A stretch of DNA of 64,000 bases, taken from contig DAORAL010000010.1 in the NCBI GenBank assembly GCA_035344155.1, positions 24,118-88,117 of the forward strand, in the 5' to 3' direction. The notes below the pieces were generated by a model that had not been told where the DNA came from, did no database searches, and saw only the letters and a list, made by a program, of their open reading frames with translations. Origin of the DNA: Phycisphaerae bacterium. GTDB taxonomy: Bacteria > Planctomycetota > Phycisphaerae > UBA1845. Positions 38,258-43,166 of this stretch are shown one piece after another. Position 1 is the first letter of the stretch; the number at the start of each line of letters is the position of its first letter. Position numbers and translations under genes: made by a program.

Positions 38258-39232
38258 ATGAACATGATCGATCATCGAACACTGCTTATCAGCCGTCCAT
38301 GCATCGCCATCTTTGTACTCGCAATGCTGATTGGTCCGGCCGATCTCACCTACGCCGACGCACCGCATGATGCCAATGCCGTCAACCGCATCGTCGGAAC
38401 TGTCGTTGACCACGACGGCCACCCGGTCGCCGGCGTGCAAGTCGGTGCCGCCAACCGCAAACTCGGTTACATCACCTATAGCGGTGATGGCCGCCTCTTT
38501 GTTTACGGGCAAGACAAGCGCGTTCTGCTATTCTTCAAAGCACAAAACGGCAGCTCGTCGGTGGAAAACGTGACCGACGAACAGGGTCGGTTCGTTCTGT
38601 CAAACATCATGGACGGGCCGGTCAACGTCGCCGCCGCCCACCCGCAGCATGGCGTTGCATTCATCAACAACATCGACCCGCTCAAAGACGGATCCGAAGT
38701 GAAGCTGACACTCGCAGCGCCGATTTTCGCCAGCGGCAGGGTGCAGGGCGTTCCGGCGCAACATTACAGCCCCATGCCGGGCGACGCAGCGAATCAATAC
38801 AAGTACGCCCGATTTACGCCGGTCGCCCCGCAAACGCCTGACGACATCATGTACAACATTTCAATCACAATCGGACCCGATGGACGTTTTCAAGCTGGAC
38901 CGCTTCCGCCTGACATCGACAAATGGACGCTGGCATTTGATCGCCGCGCCCGCAACTATAGCGCAACGATTCTGGAAATCCCAGTCACCATCTCAAAGCT
39001 GACCGAACATCCCATCGATATCGATTTGACCAAAGGCAAGAAGCTCGCCGGCGCGATTCGCGGCCCGGAAGATGAACTGCTTCCGGATGTTTCGATCAGC
39101 ACGGTTCGCAGCGATGGCATTCGCGTGGGCGGCGTGAGCGATGCAACCGGTAATTACGAGATCGTCGGGCTGGACGACGGCACGTACACGTTGGAAGCCA
39201 AGCGGTGGGCCAGGCGCACCGCCCCCGGTTGA
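38258..39232 (+). CDS. Secreted carboxypeptidase-regulatory-like (CarboxypepD_reg) repeat protein ending at an in-frame TGA
   Basis: Signal peptide (IAIFVLAMLIGPADLTYA). IVGTVVDHDGHPVAGVQV and SDATGNYEIVGLDDGTYTLEAKR are CarboxypepD_reg-type motifs. The frame continues open after TGA 39230-39232. Confidence 0.7.
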   Translation: MNMIDHRTLLISRPCIAIFVLAMLIGPADLTYADAPHDANAVNRIVGTVVDHDGHPVAGVQVGAANRKLGYITYSGDGRLFVYGQDKRVLLFFKAQNGSSSVENVTDEQGRFVLSNIMDGPVNVAAAHPQHGVAFINNIDPLKDGSEVKLTLAAPIFASGRVQGVPAQHYSPMPGDAANQYKYARFTPVAPQTPDDIMYNISITIGPDGRFQAGPLPPDIDKWTLAFDRRARNYSATILEIPVTISKLTEHPIDIDLTKGKKLAGAIRGPEDELLPDVSISTVRSDGIRVGGVSDATGNYEIVGLDDGTYTLEAKRWARRTAPG

Positions 39233-39775
39233 GGCCCGGGCCCCCAGGATATCTCTCTGGTCAGAGAGATCAGCTTCGTCGCAGCCGACAACAAGCCCAT
39301 CGATCTCAAGATCGACCGCTTCCTGATCATCAACCCCGGTGAACCCGCCCCCGACTTTGAAGGCACAACACTTGCGGGCGAAAAGGTCAAGCTGTCTGAT
39401 TTGCGCGGGAAGGTGGTTCTGATCGATTTCTGGGCAACGTGGTGCGCCCCATGCGTCGCCGAGATGCCCAACATCAAGCGCGCCTACGACCAATACAAAG
39501 ACAGCGGCGACTTTGTGGTCCTGGGCATCAGCGTGGACAACGACCCGCAAACAGTGTCACGCTTTGTCACCGCTAAGGGAGTCAACTGGCCCCAGATCGC
39601 AGCCGGCCCATCCGACCTGAACCCGATCGCCAAGACCTACTACGTCTCCGGCGTGCCAGCCACCTTCCTGATCAACCAGGAAGGCAAGGTCGTCGCCAAA
39701 GACCTGCGCGGAAACATGCTGGAGCATTACCTGAAGCGACTCATCAAAACGCAAGATCAACACGCGGCGAAATAG
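39233..39775 (+). CDS. TlpA/ResA-like thioredoxin-fold domain, same frame as 38258-39232, with no start codon of its own before TTG 39401
   Basis: PGEPAPDFEGTTLAGEKVKLSDLRGKVVLIDFWATWCAPCVAEMP...VSGVPATFLINQEGKVV. The fold begins upstream of the first possible start, and there is no separate signal peptide. Confidence 0.7.
   Translation, partial: GPGPQDISLVREISFVAADNKPIDLKIDRFLIINPGEPAPDFEGTTLAGEKVKLSDLRGKVVLIDFWATWCAPCVAEMPNIKRAYDQYKDSGDFVVLGISVDNDPQTVSRFVTAKGVNWPQIAAGPSDLNPIAKTYYVSGVPATFLINQEGKVVAKDLRGNMLEHYLKRLIKTQDQHAAK
39251..39270 (+). other. Perfect 8-bp hairpin with GGUC tetraloop (ATCTCTCT-GGTC-AGAGAGAT) downstream of the in-frame TGA; SECIS-like candidate
   Basis: The stem starts 18 nt after the TGA and the loop starts 26 nt after it. 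The loop sequence equals the E. coli fdhF SECIS apical loop (from memory). Confidence 0.3.
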
Positions 39776-39803: not shown

Positions 39804-40859
39804 CTAATCCAACTCGCCCCGGTCGAGACAACAGTGAACGCTCGGTTGCTCTAATTCCCACTCCATCTCGAAGAACTCCGCGCCGCATTGTGAGCAACAT
39901 GCAGCGGCACCTTCACTCATCTGCTTCCGACATCGCATGCAGATCAATACTCCCGGAAATATGACACCAATCGTTCGATCGGTCCTGTCGTTCCGGACAG
40001 TGAATCCCGCCCAAATGACGATTGATACGAACACAACTACGGGAACCGCCAAAGTAAGGTAGAGCAAGGCATGAGGGAATATGGCATCTAGGGCGGGGAT
40101 TGGCCCCAATGCTTGAGCCATCGTGATTCCAGCCAATCCACCCGCGCAAAACCCAACAGCGTAGATTACAACCAGTGTTCTCGTGCTCAGTGATCTACTG
40201 TTGTAAGCAATGCTGAAAAAGATGAGGAGCGTCATGGATGCGACTATTGAAATGCTCAGAACTTTCGACGGTGAAGCAATGTCCCGATTCGAGAACAAGA
40301 TGATGTTGTGCAGTAGCCCAGCAAGCAATATCAATCCAAAACCGAGCCCCAATCCCCCCAAAGCTGCACCTCTGGGAGACCAGAAATAAGACTCATGTGC
40401 AATCCACAAGCGGGCATTGGAGCCCTGCCTCACTTCCCACTCTTGTTCGTAAACTCGATACAGAAAAACCCGAAGTTCATTGAAATCGCGCCCCCATCCA
40501 TAGCTCCAGACAGGCAAAATACAGAGGACAAAAGCGCACAAATAAACCTCGTCCCAAGCATCGCCGTGGAAACGGTCAGAGCCCTTCTCCCACAGCGTCT
40601 CGAAAAACGCGAGAGTCAGAAGTAATCCAACCCCAACACATAGTCCACCAAGCGATCTGTGCCATCCACGAGATTCCTTCGACGCGATGAACAATGAATA
40701 TCCAATCAGTGAGCCAAACACGCTGAACGTTAATACACCGGCACTGACAGTTTGGCTCCAGCAGGCAGAACACATGCTGACGAATACACCAAAAAGTAGG
40801 CCTACACCTACTGTTCTAACTATGGAATGACGAGGTGAGATGAATTCGACACAGCGCAT
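39804..40859 (-). CDS. Hypothetical polytopic membrane protein with C-terminal zinc-ribbon (CxxC...CCxxC), in a visibly AT-richer segment
   Basis: 351 aa with about 9 hydrophobic helices. C-terminus CMRCRKQMSEGAAACCSQCGAEF. Confidence 0.45.
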   Translation of the reverse strand: MRCVEFISPRHSIVRTVGVGLLFGVFVSMCSACWSQTVSAGVLTFSVFGSLIGYSLFIASKESRGWHRSLGGLCVGVGLLLTLAFFETLWEKGSDRFHGDAWDEVYLCAFVLCILPVWSYGWGRDFNELRVFLYRVYEQEWEVRQGSNARLWIAHESYFWSPRGAALGGLGLGFGLILLAGLLHNIILFSNRDIASPSKVLSISIVASMTLLIFFSIAYNSRSLSTRTLVVIYAVGFCAGGLAGITMAQALGPIPALDAIFPHALLYLTLAVPVVVFVSIVIWAGFTVRNDRTDRTIGVIFPGVLICMRCRKQMSEGAAACCSQCGAEFFEMEWELEQPSVHCCLDRGELD

Positions 40860-40901: not shown

Positions 40902-43166
40902 TTATAGACTCTCGACTCGCAATGTTTCCAACTGAACCAAACCCGAATTAGCCGCGCCTTTCTCGAAAGAGATAGTCACGCAGACATTCTTAAATGCCGG
41001 CGTTTTGGAGCGGGCGTCGGTGGTTTTGGGGACGAGGATGTTGGCTTCGGGGTAGTACATGATGGCGTTGCCGGCTCGCACGTCGAACGGGCGGACGAGG
41101 ATGTTGGTCATCTTTCCCGTCGCGCTCGAGACGGTGACCGGCTGATCGATTTTGAGATTGCGGGCTTCGATGTCTTCGGGGTTCATCAGGATCACGTCGC
41201 GACGTTCCTGGTTCCGGTAGATGTCCTCCTCTTCGTACACCACCGTGTTGAACTGACCTTCGCTGCGCACCGTCATTAGCCGCAACTGATCGCCCTCGCC
41301 TTGAAGCTTCGGCATCGCCACGTTGTGAAACTGTGCTCTCTTGGAAGGGGTCGCGAACACCGGTTCGTGAAACGTCCTGCCCGCGATATGAAACTCGCCA
41401 TCCTTTTTGTTGTCGTCGATCTCGCCGATTTTCTCATAACCGGGGATGGCGGCTGCGATTGCCTTGCGGATGTTTCGATGCTCGGCAAACTTCGACCAGT
41501 CGATCGGCGAATCTTCGCCAAAATAGTCTGCCGCCATCGATTGAATCACGTCGACCTCGCTGCGCGGACCTTCATACCGCGCCTTTCCGCCGTCGCTTAA
41601 ACGCACGAAGTTGAACATCGACTCCTGCGTCGTGGACTGCGCCTCTTCATCGCGGGCTTGCACCGGGAGAATCCACGTCTCCTTGCCCGTTCCATGCGCA
41701 TGACCGGTATTCAGCGTGGTCGAAAGATACACCACCGAATCGATTCCCTGCATCGCCTTCGCCGCAAACTGCTGATCCGGATTGGATGCATACAGATTCC
41801 CACCCAGACAAAGCGCAAAACGCACGTCGCCCTTGGTCGCAGCTTCCATGCAGGCCATCGTGTCCATACCAAAAGTGTCAGGCAGTGACACTTTCAGATC
41901 ACGCTGGATCCGCTCGAAGACCGCTTCCTTAAGCTTCGGCGTCACCCCCATCGACCCGATGCCCTGCACATTGCTGTGCCCGCGCAATGGCAGCAAACCC
42001 GCGCCGGGCCGCCCCACCATCCCGCGCAGCAGCGCCAGGTTCGCAATCGCCTGCACATTCTCCACGCCGTGTTCGTGGTGCGTGATGCCCATCGCCCAGC
42101 AAAACACTACGTTTTTCGCGAGGGCATAGTCCTTCGCGACGCGCCGAATCAGCGATTCCTCAACACCGCAGCCAGCAACAATCTCATCCCACTGCGCAGC
42201 TTCCACCATCGACAGAAACTCAGCCCCACCATCGGTGTACCGCTCGATGAACGAAGTCTCGACCCGCCCCAATTCGCCCAGCGCCTTAGCCACCCCGATC
42301 AAGAACGCGATGTCCCCGCCAATGTGCGGCTGAACGTACGTGCTCGCGATCGAACTGCCGAACAAAAGGGAGCGCACGTCGGACGGCACCTTAAAGCGCA
42401 CCAGTCCAAGTTCCTTCGCCGGATTGACCACGACGACTTTGCCACCGCGCCGACGCAGTTCGACCAGCTCGGCCATCAATCGCGGATGGTTGGACGCAGG
42501 ATTTCCGCCGATCAGAAAAACCATGTCGGCTTGATCGAGGTCATCGAGTGTGACGGTAGCCGTCCCCGATCCGGTCACGCTGGCCAACCCGACCCCGCTG
42601 GCTTGATGGCAATAGTACGAACAGTTGTTGACGTTGTTGGTGCCATACAACCGCGCGAACAGCTGCAAGAGGAAACCGGCTTCGTTGGAAGACCTGCCGC
42701 TGAAATAAAAGAAGCTTTCGTTCGGATCGGTCTCGCGCAGCTTGCCGACGATGCCCGCGAGCGCCTGCTCCCACGACACTTCGCGATAGTGCGTCGCGTG
42801 TTTGCCGAGGTAGAGCGGTTTGACGATGCGCCCGCTCAACTCCAGATCGCGCGGCGACATCCGGCGCAGTTGATCGATGCTGAATCGCTCAAAGAACCCG
42901 CCGCGAATCGCACCCTGAAGGTCAGCGGCCATCGCTTGCATCGACTTTTTACAGACAGCCGGGAAGTTCCCGCGCTCGTTGACCATCCCCCCGCGCTGCC
43001 CGCCCATGCCCAGCGCGCAGGTCTTGCACGCATTCTTGGAAAACATCGCCCGCAAGAGGCGCACGATCCCACCAGCCCGTTGGGCGTATTGCAGACTCTG
43101 CTTGATGGCGTGCCAGCCCCCGCCGGCATTGAGTGGTTTCATGACTTTCATATCGGAATCGACCAC
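40902..43166 (-). CDS. FdhF/YdeP-family molybdopterin oxidoreductase
   Basis: N-terminal NACKTCALGMGGQRGGMVNE...FPAVCKKS (YdeP signature), an MGD-binding domain, and a C-terminal molybdopterin dinucleotide-binding barrel. Confidence 0.85.
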   Translation of the reverse strand: MVDSDMKVMKPLNAGGGWHAIKQSLQYAQRAGGIVRLLRAMFSKNACKTCALGMGGQRGGMVNERGNFPAVCKKSMQAMAADLQGAIRGGFFERFSIDQLRRMSPRDLELSGRIVKPLYLGKHATHYREVSWEQALAGIVGKLRETDPNESFFYFSGRSSNEAGFLLQLFARLYGTNNVNNCSYYCHQASGVGLASVTGSGTATVTLDDLDQADMVFLIGGNPASNHPRLMAELVELRRRGGKVVVVNPAKELGLVRFKVPSDVRSLLFGSSIASTYVQPHIGGDIAFLIGVAKALGELGRVETSFIERYTDGGAEFLSMVEAAQWDEIVAGCGVEESLIRRVAKDYALAKNVVFCWAMGITHHEHGVENVQAIANLALLRGMVGRPGAGLLPLRGHSNVQGIGSMGVTPKLKEAVFERIQRDLKVSLPDTFGMDTMACMEAATKGDVRFALCLGGNLYASNPDQQFAAKAMQGIDSVVYLSTTLNTGHAHGTGKETWILPVQARDEEAQSTTQESMFNFVRLSDGGKARYEGPRSEVDVIQSMAADYFGEDSPIDWSKFAEHRNIRKAIAAAIPGYEKIGEIDDNKKDGEFHIAGRTFHEPVFATPSKRAQFHNVAMPKLQGEGDQLRLMTVRSEGQFNTVVYEEEDIYRNQERRDVILMNPEDIEARNLKIDQPVTVSSATGKMTNILVRPFDVRAGNAIMYYPEANILVPKTTDARSKTPAFKNVCVTISFEKGAANSGLVQLETLRVESL

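Follow-up and report, generated by a model that had tools for sequence, protein, structure and literature searches.

Does the TGA codon at positions 39230-39232 of a 64,000-nucleotide (nt) stretch of Phycisphaerae DNA (GenBank assembly GCA_035344155.1, contig DAORAL010000010.1; we call the whole stretch the window) end a gene, or is it decoded as an amino acid within one? On the forward strand a single frame runs from an ATG at 38258 through the TGA and into a thioredoxin part that closes with TAG at 39773-39775, and the peptide around the TGA reads ...RRTAPG-TGA-GPGPQDISLV... (in longer context ...EAKRWARRTAPG-*-GPGPQDISLVREISFVAA...). The initial annotation had correctly seen an open reading frame (ORF) and a thioredoxin-fold segment lying in frame on either side of this codon, and had interpreted the TGA as a site of selenocysteine (Sec) or read-through recoding. 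The Sec interpretation is strongly supported by our comparisons: the TGA is conserved among orthologues, cysteine (Cys) stands at the same position in uninterrupted homologues, a hairpin follows at a set distance, and the stretch downstream looks like coding sequence. On this evidence the TGA is very probably a genuine, conserved Sec recoding site.

The whole selenoprotein gene, read from the frame and with the same two-part layout in orthologues, would occupy 38264-39775 on the forward strand, and its product of ~503 amino acids (aa) would carry Sec as residue 323 (325 when counted from 38258). An in-frame ATG does exist at 38258, where the initial annotation had begun the ORF and which we keep as an alternative start, but the ATG at 38264 is the likelier one, with a GGAG 6 nt upstream and the agreement of the gene callers, which give a protein of 322 aa.

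Conservation of the TGA and its cysteine counterparts

At the aligned position TGA, and never another codon, stands in 22 of 22 distinct readable orthologous sequences, down to ~35% identity and all from Planctomycetota metagenome-assembled genomes (MAGs) or metagenomes; in every one of them the frame continues beyond the TGA into a complete TlpA-type thioredoxin domain. When the read-through protein was used as the query, the six nearest database proteins (57-100% identity, 306-322 aa) all ended in ...APG. In the contigs of the nearest relatives (four NCBI MAGs, one JGI metagenome and Logan assemblies) the corresponding codon is TGA, and the frame goes on with GPGPQDISLVREISFVA... into an entire TlpA-like domain; the distant relatives P0017/L012 and P0018/L010 (36-37% identity) likewise combine the TGA with an uninterrupted downstream frame. 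The site sequence of the window recurs identically in GCA_002338715.1 and in the Logan assembly of SRR609198. Alignment of orthologues, which the initial annotation had suggested as a check, returned a TGA that is kept in place of a sense codon, with Cys in the rarer full-length homologues.

A DNA pattern for R-T-A-P-G-TGA-G-P-G-P, searched in one-genome-per-species GTDB contigs, matched at 34 places, of which 12 are true family members and 22 are GC-rich chance matches without a reading frame. The 12 members lie in Planctomycetota bins (Phycisphaerae, Sedimentisphaerales and Planctomycetaceae), apart from two bins that are otherwise labelled, and three of the 12 are contigs that had already been read (L001, L003 and L004). 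Both oddly labelled bins look mislabelled: JANQQE010000021.1 (L003/L037), filed as 'Alphaproteobacteria bacterium', has the gene order of the Phycisphaerae loci, and JABWBJ010000014.1 (L035), filed as 'Gemmatimonadaceae bacterium', has a Sec site identical to that of the Planctomycetaceae sequence PLA4 (L022). A stricter pattern found seven metagenome contigs, all seven true members. One sequence with the motif variant GFG-TGA-GPGP (L056) was reached via a protein profile instead of the DNA pattern, and it too has the TGA, the frame and the hairpin. In all members with enough sequence the CxxC of the thioredoxin domain lies 71-72 codons past the TGA. As a separate curiosity, the ERZ795053 contig L052 encodes 846 aa after Sec, including a second thioredoxin-like module that lacks both cysteines (FWATWAPQ) and a long C-terminal region.

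The extent of the family was gauged with a profile of the N-terminal part (A4) in an index-free search of 1.84 billion cluster representatives (50% identity); a 120-aa profile of the Sec loop (A3), run against a word-indexed protein database, had given two weak matches and missed known members. Among the best 150 matches of A4, 64 are proteins shorter than 900 aa, of which 54 stop precisely at R-[WHYF]-x-x-R-x-x-x-G, most commonly as RTAPG (18) or RTGPG (11); the pre-Sec motif of the family as a whole is R-[WHYF]-x-x-R-[TV]-x-[PF]-G. Six of the 64 run uninterrupted through ...G-C-G-x-G... into a TlpA domain, and P0008, which aligns across the whole N-terminal part, is a seventh Cys-form cluster (the seven, all with ...PG-C-G-x-G..., are P0008, P0182, P0193, P0207, P0212, P0250 and P0258). 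Cys is the only residue found at the TGA position in the uninterrupted homologues (7/7 clusters), and a TGC codon was verified there in the DNA of P0008/L011 and P0250/L057. Judged from these sequences, the family is large and, as far as seen, restricted to Planctomycetota, with Sec predicted in most members and Cys in a minority.

The second redox site differs between the two forms. In 16 of 17 Sec forms the TlpA site is CxPC (CAPC, CGPC, CSPC or CVPC; the exception, L050, has CGVC), whereas all seven Cys forms have CG[I/M/L]C, a contrast that may reflect co-adaptation of two redox centres or simply phylogeny.

The stretch beyond the TGA behaves like the coding sequence around it. As the initial annotation had stated, the earliest in-frame ATG, GTG or TTG after the TGA is the TTG at 39401, which is codon +57 and lies past the first strands of the thioredoxin fold. 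From the TGA to this first start, synonymous and non-synonymous codon differences against five orthologues number 9:6, 16:9, 12:11, 14:12 and 18:9, ratios that resemble those of the flanking coding segments, and by this measure the stretch is evolving as coding sequence. In L006 there are no in-frame start codons at all between the TGA and the CxxC. The open thioredoxin fragment from the TTG start would span 39401-39775 in the window; the downstream genes that pipelines actually call (103 aa; 39464-39775 in the window, 4569-4880 in L001, 3201-3512 in L054/L055) begin past the CxxC and would be dead fragments.

A SECIS-like hairpin behind the TGA

For the Sec insertion sequence (SECIS) hairpin of bacterial selenoprotein genes a published consensus (bSECIS) gives a loop of 3-9 nt, a stem of 4-16 bp, a G in the first two loop positions, a spacing of 16-37 nt and a folding free energy of at most -7.5 kcal/mol (PMC13188914). 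In the window ATCTCTCT-GGTC-AGAGAGAT, or AUCUCUCU-GGUC-AGAGAGAU as RNA, occupies 39251-39270 on the forward strand and forms a perfect 8-bp stem that starts 18 nt after the UGA and a 4-nt loop that starts 26 nt after it, just as the initial annotation had described. With its GGUC loop, 8 bp, spacing of 26 nt and -9.8 kcal/mol, it agrees with all four published bSECIS constraints. The comparison made in that annotation with Escherichia coli fdhF was borne out on the K-12 sequence, in which the UGA is codon 140, the loop is GGUC and 18 nt separate UGA from loop. The locus thus resembles fdhF in having an in-frame UGA followed by an intragenic stem-loop with an identical apical loop, and it resembles bacterial selenoprotein genes generally in having Cys-containing homologues. 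It differs in its spacing (26 against 18 nt), in a perfect-stem register without a bulged U, in loops that vary across the family, and in a protein that is unrelated to formate dehydrogenase and whose Sec is not a ligand of a Mo/W cofactor.

Such hairpins are rare. In the 64 kb of the window only 13 perfect stems of 8 bp or more close a loop of 3-9 nt, and the chance expectation for the 22-nt SECIS interval behind a given codon is ~0.0045. The folding of 60-76 nt around the site is unremarkable (z-score -0.4); the significance of the hairpin lies in its position and conservation and not in bulk stability.

Conservation was followed at two depths. Within the clade of the window the 20-nt hairpin is invariant while nearby third-codon positions vary, and the only change seen (L006, AGG for AGA) replaces a U-A pair by U.G and keeps the pairing. 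Across a gapless alignment of 21 distinct sequences (A2) a hairpin occurs in the same place in 21 of 21, with loops of 3-8 nt, spacings of 24-26 nt and free energies of -7.7 to -17.7 kcal/mol, so that all 21 agree with bSECIS in size, spacing and energy. The stems themselves differ (AUCUCUCU/AGAGAGAU, CAUCUCCUG/CAGGAGAUG, GGAUGUCG/CGACAUCC, UGCGG/CCGCA and others), as do the loops (GGUC, GUCG, UUCACC, CUUGAU and others), many of the others reading G[G/U]UCA when their closing pair opens. In the register that joins alignment positions 34-42 with 49-57, 83.6% of cells pair, compared with 31-59% when the partners are slid, and none of 500 shuffles reached 83.6%; the innermost pair, 42-49, is GC in eight sequences, UA in seven and CG in two. 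The initial annotation had asked whether the hairpin co-varies among orthologues, and what we find is a fixed distance with different stem sequences.

The 22 chance matches of the DNA pattern served as a control. Their median uninterrupted hairpin is -5.5 kcal/mol, compared with -8.8 kcal/mol in the family; -7.5 kcal/mol is reached by three of the 22 and by 15 of 20 family members; and their hairpin distances scatter over 16-36 nt, whereas those of family members cluster at 24-26 nt. Fixed in position but diverse in sequence, these hairpins also form a data set from which SECIS and SelB specificity in Planctomycetota could be studied.

Many members have a second GC-rich hairpin after the SECIS-like one, at nt +44 to +62 past the UGA (A2 columns 59-77; for example L032, L050, L012 and L040). 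It spans the P-V-G/R-D codons, as in GGUUCCGGUUCGGAACC and GAUCCCGGUUCGGGAUC; the clade of the window has at this place a weak GUCG....CGAC only (39277-39288).

The probable recoding site weighed against other readings

Conserved homologues with TGA, Cys/Sec pairs and a candidate bSECIS are together what the field requires of a selenoprotein 'predicted with high confidence' (PMC13188914), and all three are found here. The initial annotation had itself objected that the TGA is not at the CxxC, which is factually right, although the first Cys of WCAPC lies 71 codons past the TGA and not about 60 as it had estimated. The pairing of Cys with Sec at the TGA position answers the objection, since it marks the Sec as a conserved redox-type residue outside the thioredoxin motif.

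Several observations pull the other way. The loop-G rule (first two positions) holds in the minimum-energy structures of only 11 of the 21 sequences; covariation is modest, part of the stem (UCUC/GAGA) being conserved in sequence and coding for a conserved D-[ILV]-S...R-E-I; and the copy in the window can adopt, because of its CU/AG repeats, a second register (39248-39271, one A.G mismatch, loop CUGGUC), which scores weaker across the alignment. Rfam searches of the entire window (gathering score) and of the surroundings of the site (E up to 10) yielded no SECIS family and two chance matches only. One of the two Cys-form DNAs, L057 (3001-4464), keeps a weak, G.U-rich hairpin of -7.2 kcal/mol at the SECIS position; this could be a relic of a recent change from Sec to Cys. 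The motif of P0250, PG-C-GPGPRD, is the closest of the Cys forms to the Sec forms. Neither tblastn queries with SelA, SelB and SelD of E. coli nor ARAGORN found selA, selB, selD or tRNA-Sec in the window or in the related contigs (~400 kb), DNA that amounts to a few percent of each genome; in favour of Sec, some Planctomycetes are reported to carry complete Sec machinery (PMC4807772). As regards the function proposed below, the contrast between CxPC and CGxC may stem from a single Cys-form clade, and among the loci compared no neighbouring gene is conserved across lineages that would suggest a substrate or a reductant.

The alternative that survives best, unlikely as we judge it, is programmed read-through independent of Sec, in which the hairpin would perturb termination and a near-cognate tRNA (Trp, Cys or Arg) would read the UGA, giving a selenium-free fusion or a mixture of short and long products. 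It would sit well with the absence of Sec machinery from the DNA searched, with loops that vary and carry the expected G in 11 of 21 cases, and with the fact that a truncated 322-aa product would be a complete exported beta-sandwich protein. However, such a mechanism would lead one to expect relatives with Trp or Arg, and Cys, the usual evolutionary partner of Sec, is the sole residue in the seven uninterrupted clusters; moreover, the distance, size and GGUC loop of the hairpin fit the bacterial SECIS consensus and fdhF. We know of no comparable bacterial read-through system.

Less probable still is the presence of two separate genes, a secreted beta-sandwich protein ending at the TGA and a small thioredoxin whose translation would begin by re-initiation or at an uncommon start codon. 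Two genes are what every gene caller annotates, and a subgroup with GPGP-M-D has an in-frame ATG five codons past the TGA, but in most members a start close to the TGA is lacking, and in L006 none occurs from there to the CxxC. The codons just past the TGA (GPGPxD...) are the best conserved in the gene and are always in frame. The TGA also halves a domain: the Pfam match to CarboxypepD_reg (PF13620; 60.2 bits against a cut-off of 32.3) covers profile positions 2-55 of 82 and ends at residue 315, which argues that the beta-sandwich is cut by the TGA and runs past it, and in an AlphaFold2 model of the Cys homologue P0008 the sandwich indeed goes on after the Cys. The downstream part lacks a signal peptide, as the initial annotation had noted, even though TlpA-type domains act outside the cytoplasm, and the Cys homologues are single polypeptides.

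The remaining two explanations have next to no probability. According to the first, the TGA at 39230-39232 arose by a recent nonsense mutation that left a pseudogene, or is an error of sequencing or assembly; the bare in-frame stop is the only argument for it. It is excluded by the breadth of conservation (22 distinct orthologues, sampled independently, have the TGA and 54 clusters at 50% identity imply it, with purifying selection on either side) and by the identical sequence in two assemblies. The second, a genome-wide reassignment of UGA to sense, as in genetic codes 4 or 25, is excluded because TGA works as an ordinary stop (it ends 12 of the 34 long ORFs in the window and is the true terminal stop of seven family members) and because the window has no second coding pair split by TGA. 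When the window and related contigs (~400 kb) were scanned for more such pairs, shadow ORFs were all that turned up.

Domain architecture, candidate redox relay and genomic context

The predicted selenoprotein consists of a signal peptide, three immunoglobulin (Ig)-like, CarboxypepD_reg-like beta-sandwich domains and a C-terminal TlpA-type thioredoxin domain with WCAPC. The predicted Sec-type signal peptide, MIDHRTLLISRPCIAIFVLAMLIGPADLTYA/DAP (38264-38356, forward strand), was read by eye; it is the sole export signal of the protein, orthologues show a matching n-h-c layout in the alignment, and residues 1-27 are disordered in the AlphaFold2 model of the Cys homologue. The third beta-sandwich domain (39044-39292, forward strand), delimited from the PF13620 match and the P0008 model, holds the TGA in the loop between its last strands. 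Directly before the Sec codon the motif R-W-A-R-R-T-A-P-G (39203-39229, forward strand) is invariant or nearly so in orthologues and shows synonymous variation at third positions; the residues around Sec as a whole, R-W-x-x-R-T-A-P-G-U-G-P-G-P, are the best conserved in the family.

The thioredoxin-fold domain (39335-39706, forward strand; CxxC of the WCAPC active site at 39443-39454, C394 and C397) matches the Pfam models AhpC-TSA (84.5 bits, 7e-24) and Redoxin (78.8 bits, 5e-22) at residues 360-483 as well as Thioredoxin_8 (56.5 bits), all over their cut-offs. No NCBIfam model reached its cut-off in a scan of the window protein, the equivalog and subfamily models scoring 109 against 170 (ResA), 66 against 230 (TlpA) and 39 against 123 (DsbE). 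By these scores the domain is of TlpA/ResA type but is none of the named orthologues.

The structure was modelled with AlphaFold2 on the Cys homologue P0008 (mean predicted local distance difference test score, pLDDT, 84; predicted template modelling score, pTM, 0.74). In this model the Cys lies at the tip of loop 306-317, between strands 296-305 and 318-328 of the third beta-sandwich, and the Cys loop is the sole internal segment with pLDDT below 50 (residues 310-313). Foldseek placed the C-terminal domain of the model close to ResA, DsbE and TlpA structures (target-normalised TM-score 0.8-0.88).

Given these features, one gene at 38264-39775 would yield an exported selenoprotein of ~503 aa by the standard bacterial route: a complex of SelB and Sec-tRNA(Sec), recruited, on comparative evidence, by the hairpin at 39251-39270, would decode UGA 39230-39232 as Sec. 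In the last beta-sandwich, a flexible loop rich in Gly and Pro (R-W-x-x-R-T-A-P-G-U-G-P-G-P) would then display the residue at the tip of a beta-hairpin. We infer a redox-active, substrate-facing Sec from the conservation of the loop, its low confidence in the model and the CxxC variants that track Sec and Cys; a substrate outside the cytoplasm, for instance a peroxide, sulfoxide or disulfide, might oxidise it or join it in a selenenylsulfide, with recycling in cis by the adjoining TlpA CxxC, itself re-reduced by a membrane thiol-electron transporter. The core of this scheme, electron exchange between a Sec on a mobile loop and the CxxC next to it, is a relay suggested by sequence and model to which we give slightly less than even credence. 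More tentatively, the family may represent a new class of extracytoplasmic selenoenzyme in which a fused TlpA domain regenerates, in cis, a catalytic Sec that sits on a flexible Ig-like (CarboxypepD_reg) loop and is flanked by conserved Arg and Trp. Such a family, of 54 or more clusters (50% identity) and specific to Planctomycetota, could even be a main reason why these mostly uncultured lineages keep Sec machinery.

Known systems share single elements of this arrangement. The UGC-containing TlpA (NCBIfam NF041054, WAxxUGC; the 'Prx-like (UGC-containing)' of the GOS survey) is likewise a TlpA/ResA-type thioredoxin-fold selenoprotein of environmental bacteria, but its Sec lies inside the thioredoxin motif, whereas the window has WATWCAPC with Cys and a Sec 71 residues upstream in another domain; the window protein scores 34.1 bits against NF041054, whose cut-off is 300. 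To our knowledge, almost all thioredoxin-fold selenoproteins carry Sec in a CxxC-type motif. TlpA, ResA and CcmG (DsbE) reductases have the fold and WCxxC of the C-terminal domain but lack Sec and a conserved third redox residue on a preceding Ig-like domain, and database matches show that Planctomycetes have many TlpA-type domains fused to CarboxypepD_reg-like modules. In Neisseria PilB (Trx-MsrA-MsrB) and, with its GCUG tail, mammalian thioredoxin reductase, a thioredoxin-type domain recycles Cys or Sec in cis. The predicted protein resembles these in combining, in one polypeptide, a mobile or neighbouring Cys/Sec centre with a CxxC module, and in placing Sec in a Gly-rich flexible segment; it differs from them in lacking any kinship of sequence or fold and any MsrA/B or flavoprotein domain, its partner being a beta-sandwich.

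Neither NCBIfam nor a 2026 inventory, which lists 119 families of prokaryotic selenoproteins, contains this family, and none of the database proteins among the matches is annotated at full length with Sec. A literature search returned no paper linking selenocysteine with carboxypeptidase-regulatory-like domains, and the papers naming both Phycisphaerae and selenocysteine were irrelevant here. A recent groundwater MAG survey reports new selenoprotein candidates that are unvalidated, among which the family may already have been detected. This appears, then, to be a large and apparently uncatalogued family of exported selenoproteins of Planctomycetota, whose recoding mechanism is apparently the standard bacterial one. 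In every assembly examined its members are annotated as 'hypothetical protein' or, wrongly, as 'protocatechuate 3,4-dioxygenase beta subunit', after which comes a thioredoxin fragment that lacks the active site, a systematic mis-annotation that would hide dozens of clusters of a ~500-aa exported redox protein. Recognising the family corrects these annotations, and pipelines could call its members if given a profile that has Sec at the motif. It would also add a family to a prokaryotic selenoproteome (119 in 2026) in which Planctomycetota are barely covered, and the intact CxxC together with a Sec on the neighbouring domain suggests a relay of three residues and, possibly, an extracytoplasmic catalytic use of Sec that would be new.

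Synteny with the contigs of the nearest relatives extends over a DUF2079 gene, the selenoprotein gene, a molybdenum (Mo)-oxidoreductase gene, a MobA-like gene and pilin genes. Beyond the Phycisphaerae clade no conserved neighbourhood was found among the loci compared, the Mo-oxidoreductase and MobA-like genes being syntenic only within that clade. The former (40902-43166, reverse strand) encodes a 754-aa FdhF/YdeP-like molybdopterin oxidoreductase with Cys at the expected Sec position, and the MobA-like nucleotidyltransferase gene lies beyond it; the same pair adjoins the selenoprotein gene in L001, L003, L004, L007 and L021. Convergent with the selenoprotein gene and next to it, 39804-40859 (reverse strand) encodes a 351-aa multi-pass membrane protein with a C-terminal, zinc-ribbon-like CxxC...CxxC tail and no Pfam match, which occurs at the nearest orthologous loci only.

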